Shown here: piece by piece, positions 8,405 through 33,382 of the stretch
Layout of the letters: each line of letters begins with the position of its first letter
Position numbering within the stretch: the first letter of the stretch is position 1
DNA from: Candidatus Nomurabacteria bacterium
GTDB lineage: Bacteria; Patescibacteriota; Minisyncoccia; Phycocordibacterales; UBA918
Assembly (NCBI GenBank): GCA_023898585.1
Contig: CP060229.1
Span: forward strand, 139,388 to 203,387
Direction of reading: 5' to 3'
DNA length: 64,000 bases
Notes under the pieces: generated by a model
What the model was told of the DNA's origin: nothing
What the model saw: the letters and a program-made list of their open reading frames with translations, nothing else
Databases searched by the model: none
Position numbers and translations under genes: made by a program

Positions 8405-8995
8405 AAATGTCCATTGAGGCTAAAAAGGGGCTCTCCAAGGGATGGTGATCGGTTATTCACGTACGCATCACTATTATCACCATAAACAACCTCAAAAGGA
8501 TTGGCACACCAAGCAACTGATTGAGGCTGTGTTACGTGAGCACCCAGGCTATGGCCACAAGCGCTTGGCCACACACCTCAAGATCAACAAGAAACGAGTG
8601 CTGAGAGTTATGAAGTTGTTTGGTATTAAACCATACCGGAGAACTACTCCTAAAGTGTTTAAAAGCCTAAAGGTAGTGTGTTTCCCAACTATTTAATGAG
8701 TGAGGAACCACGAGGGCCAGGTGATATATATGCCTCAGACTTCACCTATCTTAAATATCGAGGAAAGTGGTTGTATGTGGCTACAGTACTCGATACGTAC
8801 ACTAGAGATAGTTGGTGTATCGATATTGACAACACATCAGACACAGCTCGTCATTAACGCTTTGGCTTCAGCAGTGCTCCATCGAGCTCCTCCACGGATT
8901 ATTCATTCCGATCAAGGGAGTGAGTACTGCTCAAAAGACTACACTGCCTTAACCCAAAAGCTTGGTATCAAACAGTCCATGAGTGCCCCCCGGTC
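8295..8995 (+). mobile_element. Decayed internal fragment of the IS3-family element (3' part of orfA plus a frameshifted, truncated orfB). Both ends are missing.
   Basis: The encoded WLGTKATGTVSLLEHNKLKKENEQLKQIIGDLTIKMSIEAKKGLSKGW and MVIGYSRTHHYYHHKQPQKDWHTKQ... are near-identical to the intact copy at 17424-18549. The orfB region has several frame breaks and stops after ...SMSAP. Confidence 0.75.
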
Positions 8996-9768
8996 ATTCC
9001 CTAGTAACCAATCTTCGCACCGGAAGGGTGCGTTACACTTTGAGTAAGATACTCACCCTAACACATCTGTTCATCGCTTCGCTGTTTATTCTGCGGGTTT
9101 GGCTACCGGATTCATCCGCTCTGTTAGCCGCCTACGGGTTCATTGCTGCCGCCATCGCCTTTTCTATTCAAGACGTCTTCAAAAATGCTATCGGCGGTGT
9201 CTTGATTTTGATTCGCAATCTGTTTAGCGTGGGTGACCGAGTGCAATTAGGAAAAGATTACGGTGATGTTCTCGATATAGGTATTTTATACACAAGAGTA
9301 TTGGAAATAAAAAATTGGGTGGACGGAGACCAGCCGACCGGAAGAATAGTCTCCGTACCAAACGGCATTGTAATCAGTTCCGCAACCCACAACTACACCG
9401 CTGATCACTCATTTATTTGGGATGAGATTCACGTACCAATAACTTACGACAGCGATTGGCGAAAAGCTGAGTCAGTGATGTCTGAGGTGGTTCAAGAACA
9501 TACTGCCCATCTTAGTATACAGGCCACGAAAGAAATGGAACTATTGAAGAATAAATATTTTCTCACCAGTGATTCTATTGAACCGAATGTCTACCTAAAG
9601 ACAACCGACAATTGGATAAGCGTGTATTTGCGCTATATAGTCAGTTCTCGCGAACGCAGAGAGGTCAATAGCCGTATTCATCGAGAAATACTGGTTCGGT
9701 TAAAGAAAGAGCGGAAGGTCAGAATTGCCTCGGCCACCATGTCGATTGACGCAAAAATATCAAAATAA
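8983..9768 (+). CDS. MscS-family mechanosensitive channel, 5'-truncated. The available ATG lies inside the IS remnant.
   Basis: 261 aa. Contains the pore-helix signature AAIAFSIQDVFKNAIGGVLILIRNLFSVGDRVQLG followed by the beta/alpha-beta cytoplasmic domains. Only 1-2 of the expected 3 TM helices remain. Confidence 0.6.
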   Translation: MPPGHSLVTNLRTGRVRYTLSKILTLTHLFIASLFILRVWLPDSSALLAAYGFIAAAIAFSIQDVFKNAIGGVLILIRNLFSVGDRVQLGKDYGDVLDIGILYTRVLEIKNWVDGDQPTGRIVSVPNGIVISSATHNYTADHSFIWDEIHVPITYDSDWRKAESVMSEVVQEHTAHLSIQATKEMELLKNKYFLTSDSIEPNVYLKTTDNWISVYLRYIVSSRERREVNSRIHREILVRLKKERKVRIASATMSIDAKISK

Positions 9769-11406: not shown

Positions 11407-11731
11407 ATACTACAATGGATTTCCGTGTGTGGCCAGTGGTTTGGGAATACTTATCAGTTTAGACAAATGGTGTAAGAGATAATCAATCTGTATGCGCCTT
11501 GCCTCACTTTTTTCAGTTTTTTTAATTTTATTTCACCTTTCTAACCCACAACCAAGTATATCAGTTACGCTCGAGACACTATCAACCCAGAATTTGAAAC
11601 TAGCTAAAACGGTCAAGCAAGGCTTGACCGACCACGGTTCTAACTCGAGACCGCCCGCAAATCATCTTCTTCACAAAACTGGCAATCAATTTGTAACCAA
11701 ACAAACCAAAACTCCCATCATAAGACTGTGA

Positions 11732-12238
11732 CTAGCTAGCACGAGAACGACGGCTCTTCTCCTTAGCTGCATCTAAAGCGGCTGCTTCTGCGGCAGCCTT
11801 CTGAGCTGCTAATTGAGCGGCTGCTTCTGCGGCGGCAAGCTCAGCTACTAATTGGGCTTCCTTTTGGGCTGTTAATTGTGCCTCGACTCTAGCTGCTTCT
11901 TCAGCGGCTTTTTGAGCCGCTACTGCTCGTAATCTTTCGGCTTCAGCTGCGTTGGATTCAGCCTCAGCTTTGGCTATAGCAGCTTCCTCGGCAGCTTTAG
12001 CCTCAGCCTCTTTTCTGGCTTCTTCTAGTTTTTTAGCCAAGAGTTCTGCCTGGAGTAGCCTTTCCCTCTCAAACAAAATCTCGTTTAGTTTTTCTTCTGT
12101 CTTCAATTCTTCATCAGCTAAATTAGCTTCTAGGAGAGCCAGGGTTTTGGCTTGTTTATGATAAAAAAGTGAACCAACAATAGCCAAGGTTATTACAAGC
12201 CCAAAAGTGACTAATACATTGTTAACTTCTTTCCGCAT
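11732..12238 (-). CDS. Membrane-anchored Ala/Glu/Lys-rich coiled-coil protein (TolA-like low-complexity)
   Basis: 168 aa. One N-terminal TM helix, then AEEAARVEAQLTAQKEAQ... repeats. Confidence 0.4.
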   Translation of the reverse strand: MRKEVNNVLVTFGLVITLAIVGSLFYHKQAKTLALLEANLADEELKTEEKLNEILFERERLLQAELLAKKLEEARKEAEAKAAEEAAIAKAEAESNAAEAERLRAVAAQKAAEEAARVEAQLTAQKEAQLVAELAAAEAAAQLAAQKAAAEAAALDAAKEKSRRSRAS

Positions 12239-12266: not shown

Positions 12267-12437
12267 TTAATCAATCTTCTGCCACATATGAGCATCCCTT
12301 TTTGTCGTCTCACATTCAGCACATTTGAAGTTATCAGGTAAATCTTCCCATTTGGTTCCGGCGGAATATCCCCGATCCGGATCGCCGACTGCTTCATCAT
12401 AGATCCATCCACATTCTAAACATACATATTGTGACAT
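12267..12437 (-). CDS. rd: Rubredoxin
   Basis: MSQYVCLECGWIYDEAVGDPDRGYSAGTKWEDLPDNFKCAECE: CxxCG...(about 30 aa)...CxxC with the conserved GDPD and WEDLPD rubredoxin hallmarks. Confidence 0.75.
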   Translation of the reverse strand: MSQYVCLECGWIYDEAVGDPDRGYSAGTKWEDLPDNFKCAECETTKRDAHMWQKID

Positions 12438-12500
12438 AAATAATCTCAAGTTAATTACTTTTCCTGTTCCTAAATATGGTACAAAATGAACATGAATAGT

Positions 12501-13547
12501 TTATGAAGAAGATGGGATAGTCACAGTCATCTTTGTACCCTTTCCAATTTCGCTCACCAAATCTATTTCTGCACCAATTTTATCAGCAATATTCCGAACA
12601 ATAGATAGTCCTAGACCAGCTCCATTTTCTGAGGTCTGCTTACGTGACGTGTCTAGTTTTGTAAAACGTGAAAAAACAGTTTCCAACTTGTCATTTGGAA
12701 TACCAATACCGGTATCCTCAACAACCAATTCTACTGTGTTTCCGGTTTGTTTAAGACCAACCCGGATATTGCCATTTTTCTTATTATAATCAACCGCATT
12801 TTTGAGGATGTTTTGTAGCAACTGAATGTAACTGTCTGCATCAATCATCAATTTGACATCCTTGTCCATGTCAGAAGAGATGACGATATTTTTTTGATCA
12901 GCGTAGTAGAAAAATCGTTCTAGTTCTTTTTGAGTTATGGTTGTTAGATTTTGAATCGTTACATTATCATCGATCGTAAGTGAATCAGAGCGTAATAGTT
13001 GCAGGAGTTGGTTAGCTAGCCTAGTTAGTCTTTCGGACTCTTCTTTGACGTCGAGAATGAATTCTTGATATTTTTTTGTTTTTTGTTCTTTGTGCAACAT
13101 AGTGCAGGCGCCGAGTTGTATAACCGAAAGAGGAGTCCTTAATTCGTGTGCCACGTCTCCCAGAAACTGTTGTTGTCTGTCTTGGTTCTCTTTGATTGGT
13201 CTTAGAGTACGTTTAGAAAACTGGTAAGAGGTCATACTTACCAATAACAGAATGATAATATCAACAAGAGCAATGACGCTCGATAAATGTTCTCTGAATT
13301 CATAAGTATTCCATTTTTCATGCAGTAAATAATCTTCTTCCACTTCATCCTCAAAAAATTCAAAGGTTGGTTTGGTCCCACTTTCTTCGGCAGGACTAAA
13401 TAAGACCAGTATAGAAACACTACTGATTAAAAGAATTATTGCTGTACTTAATACATAGTAAAATGTCAGCTTTCGTGTCGCTTTTTCAAATTCGTTAGTT
13501 TTGGAAAGCGTAGCCGACACCGCGAATGGTTTTAATATATTTATCAT
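12501..13547 (-). CDS. Sensor histidine kinase (HisKA plus HATPase_c, two TM helices)
   Basis: H-box VAHELRTPLSVIQ, N-box LKNAVDYNKKNGNIRV, G-boxes EDTGIGIP and GAGLGLSIVRNIADKIG. Confidence 0.8.
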   Translation of the reverse strand: MINILKPFAVSATLSKTNEFEKATRKLTFYYVLSTAIILLISSVSILVLFSPAEESGTKPTFEFFEDEVEEDYLLHEKWNTYEFREHLSSVIALVDIIILLLVSMTSYQFSKRTLRPIKENQDRQQQFLGDVAHELRTPLSVIQLGACTMLHKEQKTKKYQEFILDVKEESERLTRLANQLLQLLRSDSLTIDDNVTIQNLTTITQKELERFFYYADQKNIVISSDMDKDVKLMIDADSYIQLLQNILKNAVDYNKKNGNIRVGLKQTGNTVELVVEDTGIGIPNDKLETVFSRFTKLDTSRKQTSENGAGLGLSIVRNIADKIGAEIDLVSEIGKGTKMTVTIPSSS

Positions 13548-14160
13548 GTTGACCTCCTAATTTTTGGCGTAACTGTTTAATGTATACGTCAGTAATATTG
13601 CTGAATGCACTGTAAGAAAAGTCCCAGCAATGGTCAAGTAGCTGTTCTCTAGTCACTACTGAACCAGCGTTACGCATGAGATATTCTAGAACTGCATACT
13701 CTTTCAGAGTCAGCGTGACCGGATTACGACCCACCTTAACCGTTCTCGAGTTACAGTTTAATGATACATCTTGGACTATTATCTGATCACAGACGGAGGA
13801 GGTTGGACGGCGCAATAAAGCCCTCGTACGGGCTATTAGTTCTTCCATTGCAAAAGGTTTAATGAGATAATCATCAGCGCCACTATCGAGACCTTCGACT
13901 CTGTCTTCTATCTCTCCTTTAGCTGTCAGCATTAGTATTGGCGTCACGTCACCAACAGCTCGAACATTTCTACAAGTGACGACACCATTTTGTTCGGGGA
14001 GCATGACATCGAGGATAATCAAATCATAGCCTCCGTTTATAATACGCCGTTCGGCAGTTGCACCATCACCAACAACATCGACAGCGTAAGATTCATATTC
14101 CAATGCTTGCTTGATGTATTTCGCTAGTTTGTCTGTGTCTTCAACCACCAATATCTTCAT
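13495..14160 (-). CDS. OmpR-family response regulator (receiver plus winged-helix DNA-binding domain)
   Basis: MKILVVEDTDKL...DLIILDVMLP...LMLTAKGEIEDRVEGLDSGADDYLIKPF, and C-terminal VGYAF. Confidence 0.85.
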   Translation of the reverse strand: MKILVVEDTDKLAKYIKQALEYESYAVDVVGDGATAERRIINGGYDLIILDVMLPEQNGVVTCRNVRAVGDVTPILMLTAKGEIEDRVEGLDSGADDYLIKPFAMEELIARTRALLRRPTSSVCDQIIVQDVSLNCNSRTVKVGRNPVTLTLKEYAVLEYLMRNAGSVVTREQLLDHCWDFSYSAFSNITDVYIKQLRQKLGGQHDKYIKTIRGVGYAFQN

Positions 14161-14221
14161 ATTGTTAATATTAACGCTTATTCATGATAACTTCATCTTA
14201 GACTTTTAACATGAACATATT

Positions 14222-15121
14222 ATGAATGAATATTCCTATTCGGAAAGACACATGGGGACCGATACCACGGTATCTTTAATAATGGATGACAGAAAAAAAT
14301 CTGAGAGGTTAGCAAAGCAGACATTTTCGGTAATTAATACTTACGAGACCTTGTTCTCACGGTTTTTATCAGACAGTGAGTTGTCTATTTTGAACCGAAC
14401 CGGATCGCATATAGTGTGTGAAGAATTTATTGATGTATTAGAATGTAGTTTGGAACTATCGAGGTTAACCAAGGGAGGGTTTAACCCTTTGGTGCAAGTA
14501 TCTAAACTTGGCTACCGTCAAAATTTTTCTGAAATCAATAACCATGGAAGTGAAATTGAAGATGCTATATATGATATTGATGTAAATAAAATAAGGATTG
14601 ATAAAGAGACAAGAAAAGTAACTTTAGGAATCAGTCAGAAACTGGATATGGGGGGTGTCTTAAAAGGTTATCTGGCATCCAAGTTGGCTGATGAGATAAT
14701 GTCAGATAACAACGACTGCCATGGTTGTATTATTAACATCGGGGGTGACTTGGCAACTCGTGGTCTGGATGAACTTCACGAACCATTCATCTTCTTACTG
14801 TACAATCCAATCACCGGTGAAGAGACTGCGCTTCCCCTCACCGACACCTCACTATCTACTAGTGGGACTTATGCCAGAGTATGGCAAACTAATCATGGAA
14901 AAAAACATCACATCGTTGATGGTTTAAGTAGAAAAAACCCTGAGACTGACTTAACTTCTGTCAGCATAAATCATCATGACGGTTCAATGAGTGAAGCCTT
15001 GACTAAACTTTTTTTAGTCCATGGTCTAAAACAAGCATTAAAAATAGTTCCGCCCACTATTTTCAATTATCAATATTTTTGTGTTTCAAACGACGGAAAA
15101 ATTAGTTCTAACATGGTATGA
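14222..15121 (+). CDS. apbE: FAD:protein FMN transferase (ApbE/Ftp family), apparently without a signal peptide
   Basis: 299 aa with ApbE motifs MGTDTTVS, DMGGVLKGY, INIGGDLATRG, STSGTYARVW and HHIVDG. Confidence 0.75.
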   Translation: MNEYSYSERHMGTDTTVSLIMDDRKKSERLAKQTFSVINTYETLFSRFLSDSELSILNRTGSHIVCEEFIDVLECSLELSRLTKGGFNPLVQVSKLGYRQNFSEINNHGSEIEDAIYDIDVNKIRIDKETRKVTLGISQKLDMGGVLKGYLASKLADEIMSDNNDCHGCIINIGGDLATRGLDELHEPFIFLLYNPITGEETALPLTDTSLSTSGTYARVWQTNHGKKHHIVDGLSRKNPETDLTSVSINHHDGSMSEALTKLFLVHGLKQALKIVPPTIFNYQYFCVSNDGKISSNMV

Positions 15122-15744
15122 AAGCTTATTTTAATTTCATCAAATACTTCCAAAATATATTAATGGCCTCGGGAATAGTAATTCTTGCGACATTGCCTAT
15201 CTCGCTAGCATTGGTACCAAAATGGTTCACTGACAATGTTTATTTTTGGTTGTTTGCAGTCGCCCATTTTACCTTGTTTCTAGTCATGTTGGTGCGACCA
15301 CTAGCTGACATACTTAGGGGCATAACCTGGCTTCGTCCACTTGTTATCTTACGTAAAGGAATGGGTGTATTGTCTGCTTCGATTATCGTATCCTTTATCT
15401 TAAGCAAACTCATTATTGACGCTTCTGGTTATCTGCACAGCCTTACGACTGTTGACTATTGGTCATTGCAAAATCTGGCCCTTTTTGCACATTTAGCGGA
15501 CATATCAGCAGTATTACTGCTTGTTACTTCTAACAATCTGTCCAAACGACTTCTGGGCAAAAATTGGAAGCGACTTCAACGACTGTCTTATGTCTATTTC
15601 TACGCGAGTGGTCTCTATGTTTATTTTATCTTGGAAGAAACCCATGTTCTAGGTTATTTGATCATAGTAACTATCTTTACCTTGTTGGCCTGGATGCGTA
15701 ATCACGGTTTTATTTTGAAAAATAACGAGCCTCAAACTATTTAA
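15118..15744 (+). CDS. Ferric-reductase-like transmembrane domain protein (MsrQ/YedZ-like, about 6 TM)
   Basis: 208 aa. The C-terminal LGKNWKRLQRLSYVYFYASGLYVYFIL parallels the MsrQ LGKHWQQLHNFVYLVAIL region. Only 2 of the usual 4 heme-ligating His are obvious. Confidence 0.5.
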   Translation: MKAYFNFIKYFQNILMASGIVILATLPISLALVPKWFTDNVYFWLFAVAHFTLFLVMLVRPLADILRGITWLRPLVILRKGMGVLSASIIVSFILSKLIIDASGYLHSLTTVDYWSLQNLALFAHLADISAVLLLVTSNNLSKRLLGKNWKRLQRLSYVYFYASGLYVYFILEETHVLGYLIIVTIFTLLAWMRNHGFILKNNEPQTI

Positions 15745-15747
15745 TTT

Positions 15748-16455
15748 ATGAACCCCATCAAACAAATTGCAGGCACAGTTAATAAGGTGCGCGATCTCTC
15801 CCCAACAGCACGAGAATACACCATTAGACCGGACAACCCTTTTCCTTTTGTGGCCGGAACTTTCGTAAACCTGTTTGTTACCCATGAGGGAGAGGTAATT
15901 AGACGAGCTTTTTCCATCTCCTCAAATGATGATAATAATCTGGAATTTACTTTATCCATACGCTTGAGCCCCGACGGTAAACTCACACCAATCATGTGGT
16001 CAAAAAATATGATTGGAGAAAAAGTGAAAATAATGGGACCTTTAGGACTTAACACGGTTGACCGGATACAATCAAACAAAATATTTCTTTTTGGTTTTGG
16101 AATTGGCGCCGGGGTAGTTAAGTCATTAGCTGAGCATATAGTAAACAATCGCCAAGAGTTGGAATCATTAACAATAGTCACAGGCAATCGCAGTGCGAGT
16201 GAGATATTACACAAAGATTTTTTTGATAACTTAGCTGAGAAAAATGAAAAAGTATCAGTCAAGTATGTGGTCTCTGATAAAAAAGAACCGCATGGGCACC
16301 CAACCGGTTACATCCAAGAACACATAAATACATACGACTTTAATGATTCTGATATTTATATATGTGGACAGTCAATTGCATGTGTCGACTTGGAGGAAAA
16401 AATAAAACTTACCAAACCCCGAAACAGCCACTTTCTAATTGAAGATTTTCACTAG
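15748..16455 (+). CDS. FNR-like FAD/NAD(P)-binding oxidoreductase (ferredoxin-reductase-type flavoprotein)
   Basis: 235 aa with RRAFSISS (an RxYS-type FAD-binding motif) and a GFGIGAGV glycine-rich nucleotide-binding loop. It starts 4 nt after the ferric-reductase-like gene. Confidence 0.55.
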   Translation: MNPIKQIAGTVNKVRDLSPTAREYTIRPDNPFPFVAGTFVNLFVTHEGEVIRRAFSISSNDDNNLEFTLSIRLSPDGKLTPIMWSKNMIGEKVKIMGPLGLNTVDRIQSNKIFLFGFGIGAGVVKSLAEHIVNNRQELESLTIVTGNRSASEILHKDFFDNLAEKNEKVSVKYVVSDKKEPHGHPTGYIQEHINTYDFNDSDIYICGQSIACVDLEEKIKLTKPRNSHFLIEDFH

Positions 16456-16571
16456 AATGTAAATGGGGTACACTTTGGGAATATGATTGGTTATACATCC
16501 AAATTTATACGACTTACTTATCTGGGTCGATAATCATCTAAGAGACTATACGGACATCAACCTTAACCACT

Positions 16572-16600
16572 AAAAAAACCGCCCATGAGGGCGGTTTTTT
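16572..16600. terminator. Bidirectional rho-independent terminator
   Basis: aaaaaaaccgcccatgagggcggttttttt: a GC stem flanked by A and T runs. Confidence 0.6.
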
Positions 16601-17423
16601 TATTTTGTATTTTTCGGGCTAAAGAAACAATCTAGGACCTAAAACACCAAAACCACGGCTCTGTATAGCCGTGGTTTTATGTTTATCTAGCTCGCATGGT
16701 TAATAAACGAGTTAGATGTCCCTATTGTTTATCATTACAAACTAAAAAGAAAGGTAAACAAAGTGGTAGACAGCGCTATGGTTGCAACGATTGTGGTAAA
16801 CGATTTCAAACTAAGCAGAGAGAAACAGGGTTGGTTAATAAATTATGGGAAGAGTATACACATCAAAAACAAACGCTGACCGAACTGTCTAACAAATACA
16901 AGAAGAGTCACGTCTGGGTACGTACACGATTAGATCAAGTTAAAACCTCAATACCAAACATACAACCACAAAAGACGGTTATCGTAGCTGACACCACCTT
17001 CTGGGGACGACACTACGGTGTCTGTGTCTTTAGATCATGGAACTTACGAAGAAACATTTGGTGGGGTGAGGTTGAGACTGAGAAAGTGTCTCACTATCAC
17101 TACGCTCGTAAATTATTAGAAGAACGTGGTTGGACATTCATCGCTGCCGTAGTGGACGGAAGGCGTGGATTAGCAACGGTTTTTAAGGATATACCAGTAC
17201 AAATCTGTCAGTTTCATCAACTGAAGACCGTGACCAAGTACTTAACTAGAAAGCCAAAGACTGAAGCTGGTAAAGAACTGCGAAAACTGGCTTTAACACT
17301 CACGAAAACAAACGAAGAAGACTTTGCTAAAGCTCTAACTATTTGGGAGGAGAAGTATCATAATTTCTATACTGAGAAAACGTACGTTACCTGTACTAAC
17401 CATTGGTACTACACACACAAGAA
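16601..17423 (+). mobile_element. Zinc-ribbon DDE IS element (IS1595/IS1-like) copy A, 3'-truncated by the nested IS3 insertion
   Basis: Identical to copy B (42570-43610) from the left end through ...TCTNHWYYTHKN. It then abuts the IS3 terminal IR at 17424. Confidence 0.7.
16696..17423 (+). pseudogene. Transposase of IS copy A (truncated after about 242 codons)
   Basis: N-terminal CPYC...CNDCGKRF zinc ribbon. The sequence diverges from copy B at residue about 243, where IS3 begins. Confidence 0.7.
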
Positions 17424-17440
17424 TGGAAGGTACCCCAAAA

Positions 17441-18217
17441 TTAAGACACCTTTTGCAAGTCTTTTAATAATACCTCATGTTGGTCTCTAAACAACTGTGG
17501 TGGTTGCTTTAGAGCGGAGTGGATACGTTTTTGATTGTAATAATTAATAGTCTGATAAATATTAGCCACTAACTCACCGAGAGTATCAAACCGGTTTGGG
17601 TCACCTAAGTCCAATTTGAACCCTTTATAGAAACTCTCTTGGTAACCATTCTCCCAGGGACAACCGGGGGCACTCATGGATTGCTTGATACCAAGTGATT
17701 GTACTAGGTTGGTATAGTCTTGACTGGTGTACTCACTCCCTTGATCAGAGTGAATGATACGAGGTGGTGGGCGGTGAAGCACGGCACTCGCTAAAGCATT
17801 TAATACCAGTTGAGTATTATGGGTGGTTAAGACTGACACTCCAACTATCTCTCTGGTATAGACATCTAGTACCGTTGCTACGTATAACCATCTATCTTGA
17901 TACTTAAGATGAGTGAAATCGGAAACGTAAATGTCACCAGGTCCAACTGGAGATTCACTCATCAGGTAGTTGGGAAACACACTACCTTTAGGCTTTCTAT
18001 AGACTTTTTTGGCTGTTCTTCGATAAGGTTTGATGTCAAAGAGTTTCATCACCCGTAGCACCTTCTTCTTGTTCATCTTGAGGTGTTGCGATAACCGTTT
18101 GTGTCCGTACCCTGGATGCTCACGAAGAGCCATCTCAATCTGTTGTTTGGTGTGCCAATCCTTTTGAGGTTGTTTATGGTGATAATAGTGATGCGTACGT
18201 GAATAACCGATCACCAT
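17441..18217 (-). CDS. IS3-family transposase OrfB (DDE/rve integrase core)
   Basis: 258 aa with DDE region ...YVSDFTHL...IIHSDQGSEYTS...WENGYQESFYKGFK. Confidence 0.8.
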   Translation of the reverse strand: MVIGYSRTHHYYHHKQPQKDWHTKQQIEMALREHPGYGHKRLSQHLKMNKKKVLRVMKLFDIKPYRRTAKKVYRKPKGSVFPNYLMSESPVGPGDIYVSDFTHLKYQDRWLYVATVLDVYTREIVGVSVLTTHNTQLVLNALASAVLHRPPPRIIHSDQGSEYTSQDYTNLVQSLGIKQSMSAPGCPWENGYQESFYKGFKLDLGDPNRFDTLGELVANIYQTINYYNQKRIHSALKQPPQLFRDQHEVLLKDLQKVS

Positions 18218-18486
18218 CCCTTGGAGAGCCCCTTTTTAGCCTCAATGGACATTTTTATGGTGAGGTCACCGATGATTTGTTTGAGTTGTTCGTTTTCTTT
18301 CTTCACCTTGTTGTGTTCAAGAAGACTCACGGTACCTGTGGCTTTGGTGCCGAGCCAATCATAGATGGTTCGACTACTGATACCGTATTGCTTAGCCGTA
18401 TCACTGACACTCAAGCCTTCGTGTTTGATTTTATTGATAACTTCGGCTTTTATCTCAGCTGAGATCTTGTATCCTTTCTTGGACAT
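18211..18486 (-). CDS. IS3-family transposase OrfA (HTH)
   Basis: 91 aa: MSKKGYKISAEIKAEVINKIKHEGLSVSDTAKQYGISSRTIYDW..., a helix-turn-helix. Confidence 0.8.
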   Translation of the reverse strand: MSKKGYKISAEIKAEVINKIKHEGLSVSDTAKQYGISSRTIYDWLGTKATGTVSLLEHNKVKKENEQLKQIIGDLTIKMSIEAKKGLSKGW

Positions 18487-18639
18487 ATTGCTTGTATTGT
18501 TTAAGTGATAATACTTGCAAAAGTTGTCTTAAGAAAGGGGTACCTTTCAACAAGCCGCTTTTTTGTCGGACTCAGAGGATTATCTAAAGATAAAACAGTT
18601 TATCCAAAAAATCGGAACGAACCCCACGGTTCGTGACAA

Positions 18640-18968
18640 ATCCGCCCGCTTCGCCGCGCCCGCCCCGTCCGAATTTGTCTCGAAACGACGGCGTTTTTTG
18701 CTTTCCTCGCCCCGCCGCGTTCGGTCGTGTAGCGACCTCACGGAACGGGAAGTTTCAATTTGCGGTGCTTTTTGAACGAAGTTCGAACGCTCTACGAACA
18801 AAATCCGCAAGAGTTTGACTAATAACCCGCTCAGCCGCGCCCTCGGCTCCACTCCGTTCCGCCGACCGAAACAAACTCTTTTCTTTTCCGCTTTTAACAA
18901 GAAAAAATGGGGGGCGAAAAAAATGAAAAAGCAAAGAAAAGAGATTTGTTTCGGGAGTTCGCGAGGTG
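18640..18968. repeat. GC-rich repeat arm R1 (inverted relative to R2 at 22080-22440)
   Basis: 18750-18968 is about 97% identical to the reverse complement of 22080-22300. Further upstream the similarity weakens. No convincing ORF. Confidence 0.6.
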
Positions 18969-19349
18969 CTGCAAAGTAGCTCACTAAACCAGTTTATTGC
19001 TTACGCAATACCGTTCGCTACTTCTCCGCACCTCGCTCACTCGGGCGCCACCTTCAAGCGTTTGTGGTAATGTAACGTCCGCTCACACCTGCAACACCTC
19101 GCACGCTTTGCTCGCATAAGATGCTCGCGTGGGCTGCTCTGGTGTTGCGGGTGTTCGCTTAGTGGCTTCGATTTGAGTTCGTGGTGCCCACGTACATGCA
19201 TGTTTGACTATGTTTGCTCTTGGTCTGTTATCGCTGACGTCTGTATATTTTTACGAATACCTCGACCAAATCGAAACGTCTCTGTCGGAATAGGATTCTT
19301 CGGCTTTGCGTGGTACGCAAACAAAAATCATCACCGACGTTGTATTCGT

Positions 19350-20198
19350 TTAACCAGCTATGCGACACTGTGTGGCCACAGTACAATATCGCACTGATCT
19401 GAGAAAATTCATCCATCTCCATGAATGTTGCAGGCACATTGTATTCGCCTCCGATTGCTTTCTTGGGAATTGTAGGAACAGGTTTGTAAAACCACCCTGT
19501 AACTTTTCTTTGCCGGGAACTTTCACAAGTACGTCAGGCCCTTGCCCAAACACGGCTCGTTTGAAAAGCATATTCGGATCAGCAAAATGTTGTATCGCGC
19601 TACCGTTAATTGCGACGATTAAGCAGTCCTTGTCCTTGACACCGCTGTGCTCTGAGTCTTTCAGATATTGTTTGAACTTCTCATACTTTGTCCCTATCGC
19701 GTTGGTTATTCTGAGTGCGCGCGGACGATGCGTATCTTCAATATTTCCGCCAAAGGAATAGATGACACCTGACTCCATATGTGGATGTGGTTCTACGGGG
19801 TCTACTGTTCCCCAGATCACAAGTAATCGCTTCAATCCAAATATTTTTGCGCTCGGTAGTGTTATACAAAAATCTGGTCCATAATCCCAAGCCTTTTCTT
19901 TGAGTATAAAGCCCTTGTCGAGAAGCGTCGCTGCAAGATGAAATTCCCAAACACGAGCTTGATGCTCTTGTTCTAGCTTGAAGCGATCAAGAAAATCACT
20001 ATCAAGATATTTATGCACCTTGGGCCAGCGATCCTCATACCATTTTCGTAGATCTTCCCAGTACACGGCAGTCTGTACGTAGGTGTGCGAGTATTCAGCG
20101 TGCTGTTGAAATGCCGCATCAAGCTCTTCCTGGCTTGTGACCGGATCAGTCACAATATCTTTCGGAAACAAGGGCGATAGTTGTTTTAACTGTTTCAT
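19350..20198 (-). CDS. Hypothetical 282-aa protein (island cargo)
   Basis: A long ORF of intermediate GC. It contains a YGPDFCI segment, possibly a PD-(D/E)xK-like PD motif, but I cannot assign a family. Confidence 0.35.
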   Translation of the reverse strand: MKQLKQLSPLFPKDIVTDPVTSQEELDAAFQQHAEYSHTYVQTAVYWEDLRKWYEDRWPKVHKYLDSDFLDRFKLEQEHQARVWEFHLAATLLDKGFILKEKAWDYGPDFCITLPSAKIFGLKRLLVIWGTVDPVEPHPHMESGVIYSFGGNIEDTHRPRALRITNAIGTKYEKFKQYLKDSEHSGVKDKDCLIVAINGSAIQHFADPNMLFKRAVFGQGPDVLVKVPGKEKLQGGFTNLFLQFPRKQSEANTMCLQHSWRWMNFLRSVRYCTVATQCRIAG

Positions 20199-20620
20199 AT
20201 GCGCATTGTATCAATTTGTGTGACATTAGTCCTTATTTGAAGCCGTGTAGCAAAATCTTGGGCTTGACATATTGACAATATTGTGTATACTAGCATTAGT
20301 TTTCGGCATTTGTATGCCGAAATTTTTGAACCTTAACATAGAGGAGGAATTACGATTGAAAACGTAAGGCTAAAAGGCTTCGTTATTGGCTCTGACAGAG
20401 TCGGTGACGATACGGTTTGGAAGGTCCGAGTCAATGACAAGACCAATAAGCTTCATTGGAAAAAGTTTGAAGTTGCTTCCGTTCACGGAGGTATTCAGCT
20501 TGCCAAGGGGCTTGAGGTTGAGTTTTTGCTCGGCAACTTCCTGAAAGACGGACATCCTGTCCAAAGGCCGTGGATGTCGCGCTTCTGTGACTCCACACAA
20601 CAGACACAAAGAGGTAACTC

Positions 20621-22023
20621 ATGTTAAATATTCCCTTCTTGTCGGTCGGACTCATTCTGGTCGGCATCCTGCTCGTTTTGTCATCATTCTGGCGATCCTC
20701 TTCCGCAAGGTCGTGAGCACCAATATGGTGCATATCGTCCAGAGTAGCCATAAGACCACACCCTACGGCACCGGCAACAACAGTGGCAACGTCTATTACC
20801 GTTGGCCGAGCTGGATTCCGAGGTTTGGGGTCACTGTCATCGAACTTCCTGTGTCCAACTTCGATCGCAGCCTCAAGGGCTACGAAGCGTATGACAAGGA
20901 CCGGGTACCGTTCATGGTCGACGTTACGGCGTTCTTCCGGATTGCCGATACGGCGCGTGCTGCACAGCGTGTAGCGAGTATGGGAGACCTCGACGAGCAA
21001 TTGGACCTGATCGTCCAAGGCGCCGTCCGCAAGGTGCTCGCCTCTGACGTGATCGACAAGATCATGCTCGAGCGCGCACAGTTTGGCGACCTCTTCACTA
21101 ACGAGGTTACCGAACAACTCGCCGAGTGGGGTGTGGAACCAGTCAAGGCAATGGAGCTCATGGACATCCGTGACAGCCACGACAGCCACGTAATTTCCAA
21201 CATCATGGCGAAGAAGAAGTCTCACATCGAGATGGAAAGCCGGAAGGAAGTCGCGTCGAACAAACGTGAGGCCGAAATGGCGGAGATAACCGCGCAACGT
21301 GAAGTCGACATCCAACGCCAGCAGGCCGAACAGGCTGTCGGTGAACGGACGGCCGAGAAGGAAAAGGTCGTCGGCATCGCGCAGCAGCAGGCGTCGCAGG
21401 AGGTGAAGACCGAAGAAGCCAACACCAAAGCCAAGGAAATGGCAGTCGTCAAAGTCGGTCAGGTGCAACAAGCCGAGATCGATCGCGACGCGGCCATTGT
21501 CGCTGCTGACCAGCAGCGCGAGGTTGCTATCCGTGAAGCGGATGGTAAGCTCGAAGCTGCCAAGCGTGAAGCCGAGGGTGTGCGTGTGAACGGTGTCGCT
21601 AAAGGTGAGGCCGAACAGGCAATCCTCATGGCGCCGGTCAATGCCCAGATCGCTCTGGCGGAGAAGATCGCTTCGTTGCCCGAGTACCAGGAGTACCTGC
21701 GGGCGATCGAGGCGATCGGAGCCTACCGGACGGTCGGCAGCGAGCAGGCGAAAGCACTGCAGTCGGCCGACGTCAAGGTCATCTCCAACGCCGGTAAGCC
21801 TGGCGAAGGGATGACCAACGTCATGGACCTATTCACTTCCAAGGGTGGCACCACCTGGCCTCGGCGGTCGAAGCGTTCGCACAGAGCCCGCTCGGCAAGT
21901 CCATCATGGGCAAGCTGGCCAACTCGACTTCAGACAAGGTGGTGGACACTCCGGAGAAGCCGCAACCAACTGAAGAAGAGCAGACGCAGCTCGACGAAGA
22001 GAAGTAAGCCTTCTGTCCTCTAA
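20621..22023 (+). pseudogene. Flotillin/SPFH (band-7, YqiK-like) protein. High-GC foreign gene with a -1 frame break after the N-terminal TM helix.
   Basis: The ATG at 20621 gives MLNIPFLSVGLILVGILLVL (TM helix) and hits a stop after 31 codons. The body resumes in another frame at ...ILAILFRKVVSTNMVHIV... through the SPFH domain and a long EA-rich coiled coil (REAEMAEITAQREVDIQRQQAEQA...). The break falls at a T4 run near 20680. Confidence 0.7.
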
Positions 22024-22079
22024 CCTAAACCAAGTCCCCGAGTACTCGCAAGAGTGCTCAGGGCTTCTTTATATGAGCT

Positions 22080-22440
22080 AGCCAATTTTGCAGCACCTCG
22101 CGAACTCCCGAAACAAATCTCTTTTCTTTGCTTTTTCATTTTTCGCCCCCCATTTTTTCTTGTTAAAAGCGGAAAAGAAAAGAGTTTGTTTCGGTCGGCG
22201 AAACGGAGTGGAGCCGAGGGCGCAACTGAGCGGGTTATTAGTCAAACTCTTGCGGATTTTGTTCGTAGAGCGTTCGAACTTCGTTCAAAAGCACCGCACT
22301 TTAGGACAATCAACGGAAACAGAACCCGAGGGCCGCCGCCGCGCAAGCGGCGGCGCCGTGCCATGTGGCGGCAAAGCAAAGGGCGAACGGCGCGGCACAG
22401 AGAGCGTGCGCACGGAAATGGACGGGTTCGTCGTGCTTGT
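22080..22440. repeat. GC-rich repeat arm R2
   Basis: Reverse complement of R1. Its inner part (22300-22440) is also repeated, again inverted, at 24040-24180 inside the recombinase 3' end. Confidence 0.6.
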
Positions 22441-22602
22441 TGTGAATATTTAAGGTTCACAACCACGCACGCGTTTTGTTGCACAAAACAACCGATCTTT
22501 TGTCTGCTCTATTTGAGCGGCGTGAAGCGATTTTGAGTATTTGGATTGTCCGAAAATTTTGCTCTGTTTATTCTGTGTATGATAGAATGTGAGTGTACCC
22601 AA

Positions 22603-22679
22603 CCAAATCGAGAAGGTCTTTTTAATGGCCGTCTTTGGGCAATTCGAGGTCTTCTCGGGTTGGGTACACCAAGGACGGC
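22603..22679. promoter_or_regulatory. Imperfect inverted repeat immediately upstream of the serine recombinase gene. Candidate recombination (att/res-like) site or operator.
   Basis: GTGTACCCAACCAAATCGAGAAGGTC ... GAGGTCTTCTCGGGTTGGGTACAC flank a 26-bp AT-rich core. Confidence 0.3.
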
Positions 22680-22687
22680 TATTATAG

Positions 22688-24212
22688 TTTCCATATGAAA
22701 GATACTCCGCAAAATTTTATCTCTACGCTCGCAAGTCCACGGACGAAGCGCAGAGGCAAGTGCTAAGCATAGAGGCGCAGCTCCATGAATTGAGAGAGTT
22801 TGCACGAAAAGAGAATTTGCATATCGTCCGTGAGTTTGTTGAGAGCAAGACGGCGAAAGAACCAGGACGAGAAGTTTTCAATGAGATGCTTGCGAGCGTC
22901 GAGAACGGCGATGTTGAAGGTATCGTAGCGTGGCACGCGGATAGGTTGGCGCGCAATAGTGTAGATGGCGGCAAGATTATTTATCTGCTGGATGTTGGTA
23001 AGTTGAAGTACTTGAAGTTTCCAACCCTGTGGTTTGAAAATACACCGCAAGGTAAGTTCATGCTCAACATCGCCTTCGGCCAATCCAAATACTACGTTGA
23101 TAACCTTTCGGAGAACATCAGGAGGGTATTCGCCAGAAGCTCCGCAATGGCGTATGGCCAGGATATGCACCTATCGGATATTTGAATGACAAAACAAATC
23201 GCACTATTGTCCCCGATACAGACAAGGCAACCCTCATCCGCAAAGCATTTGAGCTTTATGCAACTGGCGAATACCCCTTATTGAAACTCCGAAAGGTTAT
23301 CAACGAATCTGGCTTGGTTGGGAAGCGGGATAAACTCCTTTCAATTTCAAACTATCAGTACCTACTCAAGAATCCAATCTACTACGGAGCTATCAGATAT
23401 GGTGGTGAACTCTATGACGGAGTCCATGAACCGATTATCACTAAGAAACTTTTGATGCGGTACAGAGCATCATGGGAAGCAAGTCGCGCACTACTCGCGC
23501 ACCCAAACTGAAGCCGTACAGTTACCGCGGCGTGTTCCGTTGTGGCGAGTGTGATTGCATGATAACCACCGAGACTCAGAAAGGACACAACTACCTTCGC
23601 TGCACCAAACGCCGCGGAGTATGTACCCAACCCTATGTGCGCGAGGAAGCAATAGCCGAGCAAGTACGAGAAGAAGTCCAAAAAGTTTCTTTGCCGTCCG
23701 CGTGGGTGGATGCGTGCGTGCAAATTTTAGAAAAAGAACGCACGCACCACCAACACGCGGAACGGTCGTCCGTTCAAAAACTCGAAAGTGAGATAACAAC
23801 GATCGAGAAGAAACTCGACGCTTTGCTTGATCTCCAACTTGATGGTTCCATTACACACACCGAGTACACAAACAAAAAGCAAGTGCTCCTAAATCGCAAG
23901 ACCGACCTCAAAGAGCAAATCGCCGTTTTTGAGCGAACGAGTGATAATCGGTTCGAACCTTTGACCCGCTTCCTTAAATCGCTCAACCAAGCCGGAAAAA
24001 TCACTTCACGAGGAAATCTCGAAGAAAATCGAGATTTCCTCAAAAAGATCGGTTCGAACCCGTCCATTTCCGCGCGCACGCTGTGCGTGCCGCGCCGTTC
24101 GCCCTTTGCTTTGGCCGCCACATGGCACGCCGCCGCTTGCGCGGCGGCGGCCTCGGGTTCTGTTTCCGTTGATTGTCCTAAAGTGCGGAGAGTATGGGAT
24201 TTGAACCCATGA
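22688..24212 (+). pseudogene. Large serine recombinase (resolvase catalytic domain, recombinase domain, zinc ribbon and coiled coil) with at least two homopolymer frameshifts and no canonical start codon
   Basis: Catalytic YLYARKSTDEAQRQVLSIEAQ (Ser nucleophile), then GIRQKLRNGVWPGYAPIGYLNDKTNRTIV in the -1 frame after a G3 run near 23125, then ...IITKKL/SIMGSKSRTTRAPKLKPYSYRGVFRCGECDCMITTE (zinc ribbon) after a T4 run near 23440. Confidence 0.75.
24040..24180. repeat. GC-rich repeat R3 (third, partial copy of the R2 inner segment, R1 orientation)
   Basis: The reverse complement of 24040-24180 matches 22300-22440 (ggacaatcaacggaaacagaacccgag...gcaaagggcgaacggcgcggcac...). Confidence 0.55.
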
Positions 24213-33280: not shown

Positions 33281-33382
33281 CAAACGAACGCGAACCGATT
33301 TACTTCACTTCATGTGAGGTGTTTTTTGCACTTCAGTTAACAAACACAAATAATCTGAGTAAACTTGGTATAATAACTTGGC

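Follow-up and report, generated by a model that had tools for sequence, protein, structure and literature searches.

The DNA analysed here, a stretch of 64,000 nucleotides from a Candidatus Nomurabacteria bacterium (the window), encodes an ApbE-family FMN transferase next to a putative membrane-bound electron-transfer unit. What does this ApbE modify, and where would such a unit send electrons in a fermentative bacterium with a reduced genome? The original prediction had assumed a host of this kind, and the phosphoketolase, acetate kinase and malic enzyme genes encoded within the window fit such a cell. It had described six genes between positions 12267 and 16455. All six are found there in the ORF list, with the rubredoxin and the two-component system on the minus strand (12267-14160). 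Its checkable claims hold, but it was incomplete, since a seventh gene (11732-12238) starts 28 nt downstream of the rubredoxin gene, outside these coordinates.

The locus is a seven-gene module of two divergent operons, one encoding the response regulator (RR), the histidine kinase (HK), the rubredoxin and a small protein here termed the tail protein, the other encoding ApbE, a six-TM protein and an FNR-like reductase (Table 1). The TM gene overlaps the ApbE gene by 4 nt, the FNR gene follows after a 3-nt gap, and the hairpin that ends the minus-strand operon lies about 100 nt past the tail gene. The mechanically called rubredoxin ORF (12267-12449, minus strand) begins at a TTG at 12449; its true start is likely the ATG at 12437, which would yield the 56 aa found in orthologues.

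Table 1. Genes and regulatory features of the module, in window coordinates.
Feature	Position	Strand	Basis
Terminator-like hairpin, end of RR-HK-rubredoxin-tail operon	11610-11630	-	9-bp stem (6 GC) then T-run
Tail protein, 168 aa	11732-12238	-	ORF list
Rubredoxin, 56 aa	12267-12437	-	PF00301, E 4e-18
Sensor histidine kinase	12501-13547	-	HisKA + HATPase_c
OmpR/CopR-type response regulator	13495-14160	-	Response_reg + Trans_reg_C
Divergent intergenic region, 61 nt, presumed promoters	14161-14221		ORF limits, RR vs ApbE
ApbE-family FAD:protein FMN transferase, 299 aa	14222-15121	+	PF02424, 134 bits
Six-TM FRD-superfamily protein, MsrQ/STEAP-like, 208 aa	15118-15744	+	fold + alignment
FNR-family FAD/NAD(P)H reductase, 235 aa	15748-16455	+	PF00970 + PF00175
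Terminator-like hairpin, end of ApbE-TM-FNR operon	16571-16602	+	14-bp stem then T-run

Conservation of the module and features of ApbE

The ApbE-TM-FNR trio, with a rubredoxin gene next to it, is found again in about 60 CPR genomes at species level. Among 60 GTDB species representatives found via the TM protein, 59 loci contain ApbE, 56 FNR, 54 rubredoxin and 38 the HK/RR pair, the two-component system being present in about two thirds of the genomes that have the trio. The flanking genes vary, and the clustering is far beyond chance. ApbE consistently adjoins the TM protein across these species and in four other architectures. The combination of tail protein, ApbE without a signal peptide and TM protein is likewise seen in loci of different architecture (L070, L076 and L067), and in one minimal locus (L003) only tail, ApbE and TM genes are present. 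Neither a conserved acceptor protein nor a conserved metal transporter was found in the neighbourhood of the module across the 60 loci.

The ApbE motifs DxGGxxKGY, GGD, TSGxYxR, HHI and (S)EALT align to those of TM1553 and of Treponema pallidum Ftp, an ApbE homologue that is among the PDB matches. The enzyme had been predicted to lack a signal peptide, and this is confirmed, since the 61 nt up to the divergently oriented RR gene leave no room for an N-terminal extension. Moreover, about 30 orthologous loci have an in-frame stop just ahead of the conserved start, 1-12 codons away, and the proteins of this clade measure 289-306 aa, beyond which there is a sharp drop to the canonical ApbEs of 312-347 aa.

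The six-TM protein and its proposed redox partners

No Pfam family matches the TM protein, PF01794 being missed, and its NCBIfam match to MsrQ is weak (E 4e-4). Its AlphaFold model (pLDDT 85.5) has STEAP2 (probability 1.0) and STEAP1 (0.98) as top Foldseek matches, with weak E-values of which the best is 0.07. A relative linked through the family profile (P0246) reaches the Pfam threshold for PF01794, and E. coli MsrQ aligns to the TM family HMM. Together, the model, the STEAP matches, the profile link and the MsrQ alignment support the assignment of this protein to the FRD superfamily as a six-helix member with both termini in the cytosol, in line with the MsrQ-like label that it had been given.

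Judging from the alignment, the complete cytosolic flavin pocket of MsrQ and STEAP is kept. The residues that form the FMN pocket of E. coli MsrQ, R77/R78/L131/S135/W147/H151 (PMC12525009), correspond to R79/K80/L134/S138/W150/Q154 in the window protein and are invariant throughout the family; the pattern R-R/K, L, S, W, H/Q is identical, and STEAP proteins likewise have Gln and Lys where MsrQ has H151 and R78. The heme-ligating histidines of MsrQ, in contrast, are missing. F93 and Y167 replace the canonical ligands H91 and H164, and the sole conserved histidines in the family, two as originally predicted, are H50 in TM2 and H125 in TM4, which differ from the canonical FRD ligands and are accompanied by a conserved D128 in TM4. 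T137, S138 and S142 are also invariant, and the TSN motif is invariant in E. coli MsrQ as well.

The FNR-like protein is Fre/BenC-like. It contains FAD_binding_6 and NAD_binding_1 domains, matches BenC and NAD(P)H-flavin reductase in NCBIfam, and in the PDB matches the BenC reductase, flavodoxin reductase and the dehydrogenase domain of SpNOX (E ~5e-6). Distant relatives of the TM protein occur as Fer4-FAD-NAD-TM, TM-Fer4-FAD-NAD and TM-Rd-NAD fusions, and in P0227 the rubredoxin sits between the TM domain and the NAD-binding domain of a single protein. Since ferredoxin or rubredoxin is found between FNR and TM parts, these fusions uphold the proposal that the TM and FNR-like proteins form a split NOX/ferric-reductase-like unit, with rubredoxin as the link, and they place both termini of the TM protein in the cytosol. 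Rubredoxin, which had been described as an upstream neighbour, is indeed adjacent, but we read it as a working part of the chain.

The histidine kinase has two TM helices and a short outer loop of about 35 aa, which is acidic but poorly conserved. The RR, whose gene is divergent from the ApbE operon, has its best NCBIfam matches in the RppA, PmrA and CopR families, and matches HprR with an E-value of 6e-49.

A conserved C-terminal motif in the tail protein

The original prediction had pointed to ApbE, the TM protein and the FNR-like reductase as places to look for the ApbE target motif, written there as D-x-x-[ST]-G-A-[ST] and in its published form D-x-x-[ST]-[GS]-A-[ST] (PMC8238504). It is absent from all orthologues of these three, and was not found in orthologues of any of the six listed proteins. 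ApbE would therefore have no substrate among them. We propose that the seventh gene encodes this substrate. The tail protein is a small anchored protein that had gone unnoticed and matches no Pfam family. Its N-terminus is a signal-anchor (MRKEVNNVLVTFGLVITLAIVGSLFY), followed by an Ala/Glu/Lys-rich low-complexity spacer and, at the extreme C-terminus, by EKSRRSRAS-stop.

This C-terminus has the consensus K-x-S-R-x-[ST]-R-A-S-COOH. The 62 loci contain 3357 ORFs, 56 of which terminate in R-x-[ST]-x-[AV]-S; 55 of these loci have one such ORF, which always adjoins the rubredoxin/ApbE genes. Among 57 tails, R(-5), S/T(-3) and S(0) are present in all 57 and A(-1) in 56, with the stop codon following immediately. 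The motif is strictly terminal and in register with the ApbE target, from which it departs by R instead of G at -2 and by the lack of a D further upstream; it is not embedded in an FMN-binding fold. It occurs in three further architectures, always beside an ApbE without signal peptide, and in L048-type operons about 4 nt separate the tail stop codon from the ApbE start that follows. The tail protein is probably the ApbE substrate, with FMN carried on the terminal Ser. In FMN_red proteins, flavinylation at an unstructured C-terminal site has been shown experimentally (PMC11334425).

The tail N-termini are signal-anchors, signal peptides with an AXA site or lipoboxes (LVAC in L067), which predicts that the C-terminus is exported and would lie outside the cell.

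A proposed electron route, its alternatives and related systems

We consider it moderately probable that the module is a split NOX/STEAP/MsrQ-type chain that runs from NAD(P)H through the FNR-like protein, rubredoxin and the TM protein to a tethered FMN and an external acceptor. We infer the direction of electron flow, the cofactor at H50/H125 and the acceptor as follows. NAD(P)H would reduce the FAD of the FNR-like protein, the cytosolic entry point, and rubredoxin would ferry electrons one at a time to the six-TM protein on its cytosolic side. The six-TM protein would bind a flavin in its MsrQ/STEAP-type inner pocket. A second redox centre, bound by H50/H125 at mid-to-outer membrane depth, would most simply be a b-type heme ligated by an alternative helix pair. 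ApbE would esterify FMN to the C-terminal Ser of the signal-anchored tail protein, electrons would exit from the TM protein to this FMN on its spacer of about 100 residues, and the tethered flavin would pass them to O2, Fe(III) or another oxidant. The two-component system would set expression of the module. Such a chain would let a fermentative cell regenerate NAD(P)+, consume external oxidants, or both, an unexpected electron outlet in tiny CPR bacteria; its physiological role may be oxidative-stress defence or extracytosolic electron transfer, as originally suggested.

Against this model stands the fact that ApbE has no export signal, throughout its clade, yet its proposed substrate looks exported; we know of no precedent for flavinylation before export. 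The departures of the tail motif from the ApbE target, the loss of the canonical heme ligands (F93/Y167) in a group, the CPR bacteria, that is generally not known to synthesize heme, the lack of a conserved acceptor or metal transporter nearby and the weak Foldseek E-values also count against it. The same chain might instead keep the tail flavin in the cytosol, where the FMN would plug into the inner pocket of the TM protein as a covalently held counterpart to the FMN that MsrQ binds loosely, and H50/H125 would reduce the external acceptor directly. A cytosolic site of action is favoured by P0190 and P0212. Both are fusions of FMN_red and TM domains whose C-terminus is the tail motif, some 15-20 residues past the final TM helix and facing the cytosol, and an ApbE gene directly precedes them. 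An EASGAS stretch on the cytosolic N-terminus of P0150, adjacent to ApbE fragments, points the same way, as does the intact inner pocket, which in MsrQ is described as open to the cytoplasm (PMC12525009). We nevertheless regard this arrangement as unlikely. The tail N-termini, with their positive n-region, AXA site or lipobox, predict an N-in/C-out topology, a TolA-like/TonB-like spacer of this length has no apparent purpose if the pocket lies on the same face, and the positive motif would meet a strongly positive inner surface (sequence; MsrQ model). Moreover, in the alternative-code relative L068 an exported FMN-binding lipoprotein with a canonical VDTISGAS site adjoins the TM-Rd-FNR gene, in the slot equivalent to that of the tail.

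It is quite improbable that the tail motif has nothing to do with ApbE and serves, for example, in surface anchoring or sorting. ApbE would then act on an undetected site in the TM protein, such as T137/S138/S142, or, as a FAD pyrophosphatase/flavin-trafficking enzyme, provide the TM pocket with FMN, an activity reported for some ApbE/Ftp homologues; T. pallidum Ftp hydrolyses FAD. The deviation of the motif from [S/T]GA[S/T] at the G position fits this explanation, and two loci show no tail: L073, with ApbE fragments beside an FNR-TM fusion, and L074, with ApbE, a TM fusion and the two-component system. In L074, however, the available DNA ends right after the fusion gene, and a tail may lie beyond it. 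The single motif-bearing ORF in most loci, its constant proximity to ApbE in further architectures and its retention in the minimal locus L003 all argue for a functional link, and the invariant TSN motif is shared with E. coli MsrQ, which needs no ApbE.

Finally, we give little credence to an assimilatory ferric/cupric reductase like STEAP, FRE or VIT1-linked MsrQ-like systems, in which H50/H125/D128 would form or adjoin the site of metal reduction and metal would be the signal for the two-component system: the STEAP metalloreductases as closest structural matches, the PmrA/CopR resemblance of the RR, the acidic kinase loop, a Fe-dependent repressor and Nramp near the L001 cluster, a cation-efflux gene close to that of L005 and the link of MsrQ-like systems to iron uptake (Meheust et al., 2021, PMC8238504) speak for it, but no conserved metal transporter adjoins the module across the 60 loci, no ExxE-type motif is conserved among the kinase loops compared across loci, and the idea concerns the acceptor only and is compatible with the tethered-FMN chain.

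Among known systems, the MsrQ-like flavinylation systems (Meheust et al., 2021, eLife, PMC8238504) share the ApbE gene beside an FRD membrane protein and an FNR module, a flavinylated partner and a proposed electron route that starts at cytosolic NAD(P)H and ends at a flavin outside the cytosol. They are defined by a PF01794 match, by a signal peptide on either ApbE or the FMN-bind protein and by a substrate with an FMN-bind domain, are mostly found in Actinobacteria and usually have a fused FNR, and CPR are strikingly under-represented among flavinylation systems (PMC8238504). Here, in contrast, PF01794 is missed, ApbE lacks a signal peptide, no FMN-bind domain is present, a C-terminal peptide without a fold is the candidate substrate, the chain includes rubredoxin and the host belongs to the CPR. 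E. coli MsrQ and Fre likewise combine a six-TM FRD protein with a separate FNR-family reductase in a two-component NOX-like unit, and the MsrPQ operon, under HprRS, also lies beside a divergent OmpR-type two-component system; the module described here differs in lacking the MsrP molybdoenzyme and in adding rubredoxin, ApbE and the tail protein. STEAP metalloreductases, the best structural match, share one outer redox centre and an inner flavin pocket, but are eukaryotic, carry a fused F420-type NADPH domain and the canonical TM3/TM5 heme histidines, and function without flavinylation, rubredoxin or a tail.

Within CPR, the tripartite protein Vamp_33_45 of Absconditabacteria (Moreira et al., 2021, PMC8080830) combines an FRD-like membrane domain, rubredoxin and an FNR-like domain, an architecture that matches P0227, a homologue found with the TM family profile. 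It differs in being a single polypeptide with histidines at the canonical TM3/TM5 positions and an adjoining lipoprotein with a canonical SGAS site; ApbE and flavinylation are not discussed for it (PMC8080830). The flavinylated FMN_red proteins (PMC11334425) also carry their experimentally confirmed site on an unstructured C-terminal extension, but there a canonical motif lies beside a folded flavin-binding domain, whereas the tail protein consists only of anchor, spacer and terminal peptide. Listeria EET (FmnB/PplA), although it uses Ndh2, quinone, EetA/B, the extracellular ApbE homologue FmnB and FAD export, and does without FRD protein, rubredoxin and FNR, has in common a flavinylated, surface-tethered terminal carrier that passes electrons outward from a fermentative cell.

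Gene content and conservation of the cluster

All six ORFs listed in the original prediction were located in the window, and their domains were confirmed by Pfam and NCBIfam, with the exception of the TM protein, which has no match in Pfam and only a weak one, to MsrQ, in NCBIfam (E = 4e-4). The rubredoxin matches PF00301 with 65.6 bits and has both CxxC pairs (CLEC...CAEC). The FNR-type reductase matches the DH domain of SpNOX only at an E-value of about 5e-6. Moreover, clustering of all ORFs in the homologous loci revealed a conserved small ORF adjoining rubredoxin, termed the tail protein.

Features of the window discussed in the text
Feature	Position	Strand	Remarks
rve fragment	8700-9047		nearly identical in sequence to the downstream IS3-type rve
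Terminator-like hairpin	11630-11610	-	closes the opposite divergent operon
Tail protein	11732-12238	-	28 nt downstream of rubredoxin
Rubredoxin	12267-12449	-	probable true start ATG at 12437, giving 56 aa and matching orthologues
Histidine kinase	12501-13547	-	HisKA/HATPase_c
OmpR-type response regulator	13495-14160	-	Response_reg/Trans_reg_C
ApbE	14222-15121	+	PF02424, 134.5 bits (cut-off 25.6)
TM protein	15118-15744	+	208 aa; overlaps ApbE by 4 nt
FNR-type reductase	15748-16455	+	FAD_binding_6/NAD_binding_1; 3-nt gap after the TM gene
Terminator-like hairpin	16571-16602	+	closes the ApbE-TM-FNR operon
Zn-ribbon/InsA-like ORF	16696-17490		IS gene
IS3-type HTH and rve pair	17441-18486		IS genes
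GC-rich island	18500-23200		up to 54% GC, about 39-46% elsewhere in the window
SPFH/Band-7 protein	20587-22023		within the GC-rich island
Recombinase zinc-ribbon protein	23472-24212		beside tRNA-Ser
Malic enzyme	25546-26709	-	
tRNA-Ile	33208-33281	+	anticodon UAU ('tat'), ARAGORN call
SmpB	39473-39973		
tmRNA	40930-41325		same strand as SmpB
Phosphoketolase-acetate kinase gene pair	45997-49523	-	
rve gene	51782-52660		

The sole extracytosolic segment of the kinase is a Glu/Asp-rich loop of about 35 residues (residues about 51-87, FEFFEDEVEEDYLLHEKWNTYEFREH), which varies among species except for an E-x-x-[EDQ]-[HN]-L stretch where TM2 begins. A PmrB-like ExxE iron-sensing motif in this loop was rejected: the loop is acidic, but conservation of the motif is lacking.

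The TM protein has 623 close relatives, all of about 200 aa, and the few that carry a taxon label belong to CPR lineages; it is 100% identical to a Candidatus Kaiserbacteria database entry named hypothetical protein. A scan of GTDB species representatives yielded 60 loci, each of which was searched with the six window proteins. By label nearly all are Paceibacteria-type CPR (Kaiserbacteria, Nomurabacteria, Campbellbacteria and Parcubacteria), the exceptions being one contig labeled Lutibacter and one labeled Peribacteria. The original prediction had pointed to consistent adjacency of ApbE to unrelated genes as a sign against it. This is not the case: ApbE adjoins the TM gene in 59 of the 60 loci, the FNR gene is found in 56, rubredoxin in 54 and the HK/RR pair in 38, and missing genes mostly coincide with cut contigs. 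Thus, the module genes co-occur far beyond chance. The lineage of loci L003 and L015 keeps ApbE and the TM gene and lacks FNR, rubredoxin and the two-component system. In a further locus from a Candidatus Campbellbacteria MAG (L062, 4972-7324), the ApbE, TM and FNR genes are each broken into two ORFs and neither tail nor rubredoxin was found; either the module is decaying here or the assembly contains errors.

The genes flanking the module vary from genome to genome, and in the window its GC content (38.5%) is slightly lower than that of its surroundings. The module may be mobile or rearranged as a cassette.

Fold family, flavin pocket and histidines of the TM protein

The AlphaFold2 model of the TM protein (pLDDT 85.5) consists of six long helices with the four-helix core of the ferric reductase domain (FRD), and its fold resembles that of solved members. 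In Foldseek searches against the PDB, STEAP2 ranks first (probability 1.0, TM-score 0.51), followed by STEAP1 (0.98, 0.56) and, lower, NOX2, with weak E-values (0.07). A PDB sequence search with the TM-family profile gave no match. E. coli MsrQ reaches 37.6 bits against the family HMM. Searching 1.8 billion representative sequences with the profile recovered 269 relatives, some of which match PF01794, one of them (P0246) with 32.2 bits, above the gathering score of 28. Several of these relatives are fusion proteins: Fer4-FAD-NAD-TM (P0134, P0143, P0145), TM-Fer4-FAD-NAD (P0246), TM-Fer4 (P0192), TM-rubredoxin-NAD (P0227) and FMN_red-TM (P0190). As judged from sequence, the fusions place the TM family within the ferric-reductase-domain superfamily and indicate that the TM domain has its two termini in the cytosol. 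They also position an iron-sulfur or rubredoxin module between FNR and the membrane domain, which argues that the adjacent rubredoxin in the window is a working component. In Absconditabacteria, Vamp_33_45 was previously noted to have the TM-rubredoxin-NAD architecture and suggested to be a possible PMF or ROS system (PMC8080830). Near P0192 both ApbE and tail are absent; thus, the association is not universal within the distant subtype C described below.

The flavin pocket was mapped by aligning E. coli msrQ (NC_000913.3) to the TM-family HMM. In MsrQ the FMN pocket is formed by R77, R78, L131, S135, W147 and H151, and STEAP has Gln and Lys at the positions of H151 and R78 (PMC12525009). The TM protein carries R79, K80, L134, S138, W150 and Q154 at these positions, with identical spacing. 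All six residues are invariant in an alignment of 27 sequences (A1). In the wider family, where five of the positions were tabulated, R79, S138, W150 and Q154 are nearly invariant and position 80 is K, R or Q. The window protein is thereby predicted to possess the cytosolic flavin pocket of the MsrQ/STEAP branch. Its predicted cytosolic face is densely invariant among the 27 homologues.

The heme ligands of MsrQ, H91 and H164 (PMC12525009), align to F93 and Y167, and the TM3/TM5 heme histidines of the FRD are absent. In line with the claim that only two histidines are conserved, the 27 aligned homologues share H50 (TM2) and H125 (TM4) alone. The two are predicted to sit about 15-18 Å from the inner interface, on the helices that form the other diagonal of the four-helix core. 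By analogy, we infer that H50 and H125 may bind heme via this alternative helix pair. One of the hemes of cytochrome b561 is held by a helix pair of this type. Alternatively, the two histidines could bind a non-heme metal or contact a flavin. Three subtypes can be told apart: A, the CPR group of the window, has H50/H125/D128; B has W50/R125/E128 and lacks a histidine pair; and the distant C has the classical H93/H167. Members of subtype B (P0141, P0145-P0147, P0150, P0153, P0190 and P0212) lack both histidine pairs, canonical and alternative, but keep the flavin pocket, and carry fusions to FNR, ferredoxin or FMN_red.

A candidate ApbE substrate and the proposed electron path

The window ApbE belongs to the PF02424 family, and its FAD/Mg-binding and catalytic motifs DxGGxxKGY, GGD, TSGxYxR and HHI align to solved ApbE/Ftp structures. 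Three observations bear out that it lacks a signal peptide. Its clade is of uniform length (289-306 aa), with a sharp fall to longer canonical ApbEs at 27% identity; the conserved M-x-E-[YF] start is preceded, at a distance of 1-12 codons, by an in-frame stop in about 30 loci; and in the window only 61 nt separate the ApbE and RR genes.

Where, then, is the substrate? The original prediction proposed a search for the ApbE target motif in ApbE, the TM protein and FNR, which found it in no orthologue. [ST]GA[ST], D-x-x-[ST][GS]A[ST] and tail-type motifs are absent from all orthologues of the six proteins, and hence none of the six, including rubredoxin, HK and RR, is a motif-type substrate. T137, S138 and S142 of the TM protein were rejected as the leading idea for a flavinylation site, because the TSN motif is invariant throughout the family and also occurs in E. 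coli MsrQ, a protein without an ApbE partner. Likewise, an SLH-domain protein adjoining ApbE in one locus (L074) was rejected since it has no [ST]xA[ST] motif. Literature searches retrieved nothing combining ApbE and Patescibacteria, and nothing relevant on flavinylation and rubredoxin.

The best candidate is the tail protein. It begins with a hydrophobic anchor (consensus MKKDLKNVIITFGLI...), continues with a low-complexity spacer, variable and about 60-140 residues long, that is either Ala/Glu/Lys/Gln-rich (TolA-like) or Pro/Val-rich (TonB-like), and ends with an extreme C-terminus that is invariant across the family. R at position -5, S or T at -3 and S at position 0, directly before the stop, are found in 57/57 tails, A at -1 in 56/57, R at -2 in 44, S at -6 in 42 and K at -8 in 36. 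The ending R-x-[ST]-x-[AV]-S is seen in 56 of the 3357 ORFs of at least 60 aa from 62 loci. In 55 loci a single ORF has this ending, each beside the cluster, and loci without one are cut or degraded. The tail C-terminus S-R-x-[ST]-R-A-S lines up in register with the target site of ApbE, D-x-x-[ST]-[GS]-A-[ST] (PMC8238504), agreeing with it at -3, -1 and 0 only. Known substrates carry [S/T]GA[S/T] within an FMN_bind, NqrB/RnfD, DUF2271, DUF3570, Flavodoxin_4 or FMN_red domain; this is not so for the tail, in which a domain search found no domain. A homology search with the tail alignment, dominated by low-complexity sequences, gave at least 14 matches, and the two named at source are hypothetical proteins. 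In FMN_red proteins, experiments have confirmed flavinylation sites on unstructured C-termini (PMC11334425), and orphan-ApbE genomes imply substrates yet to be identified according to Meheust et al. (PMC8238504).

The association of tail and ApbE recurs in diverse arrangements. The minimal locus L003 keeps exactly tail, ApbE and the TM protein, and in L048-type operons (Rd-tail-ApbE-TM-FNR) the tail stop lies about 4 nt ahead of the ApbE start. L070 has ApbE, a tail ending TRSRAS and a Fer4-FNR-TM fusion. L076, from a 1.56-Mb genome, has a coiled-coil tail ending TNTRTS, an ApbE of 277 aa and Fer4-FNR-TM, followed by a small membrane protein, RR and HK. In L067 the order is a lipoprotein of 90 aa with the lipobox LVAC and the ending KPSRYSEAS, an ApbE of 290 aa and an FMN_red-TM fusion that itself ends GSRHSQAS. 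Finally, in L068, an alternative-code relative, the gene adjoining TM-Rd-FNR encodes a lipoprotein in which the canonical site reads VDTISGAS; it fills the functional slot of the window tail. The small membrane-anchored protein directly after the Fer4-FNR-TM gene in L070 (2876-3403) and L076 (6461-6883), of 140-175 aa, has a similar beta-rich C-terminal domain in both loci (...GFNxIxVTAxD...) and no counterpart in the window; it is possibly an extra extracytosolic partner.

Gene content, conservation, fold family, pocket residues, fusions and the association of the terminal motif with ApbE are the observed basis of a model that we consider somewhat probable. Electrons would pass from NAD(P)H to the FAD of FNR, via rubredoxin to the inner flavin of the TM protein, and on to the H50/H125 center. 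From there they would reach FMN esterified on the terminal Ser of the tail and, ultimately, an external acceptor. Reduced flavin exposed to solvent reacts readily with O2 and can also reduce Fe(III) or other oxidants. The module would thus serve to regenerate NAD(P)+, to remove oxidants outside the fermentative cell, or both. The premise of a fermentative, reduced-genome host is sound, since phosphoketolase, acetate kinase and malic enzyme are encoded in the window. The three enzymes fit an acetate-forming fermentation that makes reducing equivalents and needs an electron sink.

The tail C-terminus is predicted to be exported, because the N-termini show a positive n-region, an AXA site (L048 type) or a lipobox (L067), and the spacers look like envelope-spanning stalks. 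At the sequence level this creates a conflict between an ApbE without an export signal and a best candidate substrate of export-type appearance. In one reading, flavinylation would occur first, in the cytosol, and the chain end would be exported afterwards, which would suit the strictly terminal motif; we know of no precedent for this order of events. The other reading, which we regard as unlikely in view of these N-termini, holds that the tail C-terminus stays in the cytosol and that its tethered FMN occupies the inner pocket of the TM protein. It draws on P0190 and P0212, which carry the motif on the cytosolic side, beyond their last TM helix, and on P0150, which has an EASGAS stretch on its cytosolic N-terminus with ApbE fragments adjoining.

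L067 suggests a flavin-only wire in some lineages, since it combines both kinds of tail, a cytosolic TM end and a lipoprotein, with a TM domain without histidines. A more far-reaching version of the model appears improbable to us. Here, FMN attached in the cytosol to the terminal residue by the signal-peptide-less ApbE, and then exported, would shuttle electrons on a flexible or rod-like tether of ~100 residues from the FRD protein beyond the cell wall, possibly to a host surface. Heme-poor lineages would dispense with the canonical FRD heme in favor of a flavin-only wire, for which subtype B, with no histidine pair, and the two tails of L067 provide the grounds. The whole would be a widespread extracellular outlet for electrons in CPR bacteria, a group regarded as devoid of membrane redox chemistry.

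Comparison with known systems and other features of the window

Among known systems, the module comes closest to the 'MsrQ-like' flavinylation-associated class described by Meheust et al. 2021 (PMC8238504). In contrast to that class, the window TM protein falls below PF01794 and has non-canonical heme ligands, FNR is separate with rubredoxin as the link, ApbE is devoid of a signal peptide, a terminal peptide with no fold is the candidate substrate and the host is a CPR bacterium. In the survey, ApbE or an FMN-bind, DUF2271 or DUF3570 protein had to carry a signal peptide or lipobox; none of these domains occurs in the cluster, where an export-type N-terminus is found on the tail only. CPR were strikingly under-represented in the survey, which filtered for a signal peptide on ApbE, a PF01794 match and known substrate domains (PMC8238504). 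The apparent depletion can be attributed to these filters, which would miss the present module. NOX proteins, including SpNOX, are single chains with four histidines, two hemes and a fused dehydrogenase, whereas the window has separate genes, two non-canonical histidines and the flavin-pocket Gln at the inner-heme position. What is new here is the tail protein, together with the export paradox.

CPR/Patescibacteria account for a large portion of bacterial diversity, and the prevailing view is that they are non-respiring fermenters that lack electron-transport chains. If the model is true, a common CPR class has an NAD(P)H-driven electron outlet, which would bear on redox balance, oxygen tolerance and host interaction. 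It would also define a new minimal class of ApbE substrate, a terminal peptide without a flavin-binding fold, which would help to account for 'orphan' ApbE genomes and be useful as a genetically encoded flavin tag. Moreover, the FRD superfamily would include members that kept the flavin pocket while their heme ligands moved or were lost. The pairing of a cytosolic transferase with an exported substrate would raise the question of whether a chain end that bears a flavin is compatible with export.

The divergent layout of two-component system and operon is likewise seen in E. coli hprRS-msrPQ, as an analogy only. There (L072, NC_000913.3, 2036794-2041118), hprS-hprR lies back-to-back with hiuH-msrP-msrQ, that is, an OmpR-type two-component system with an operon for an FRD protein. 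HprR is just one among many similar matches to the window RR, and the shared layout could be convergent or reflect ancient linkage.

Directly downstream of the module lie the IS genes, followed by the GC-rich island, which contains the SPFH/Band-7 protein, several ORFs without a family and the recombinase zinc-ribbon protein, and looks like integrated foreign DNA. SmpB and tmRNA (tag peptide AKKAVPSPYARAFGFSPAFA) are about 1 kb apart in an ordinary arrangement. Finally, the isoleucine tRNA with a UAU anticodon is unusual, since most bacteria decode AUA with a lysidine-modified CAU tRNA, and this lineage may decode AUA without TilS.
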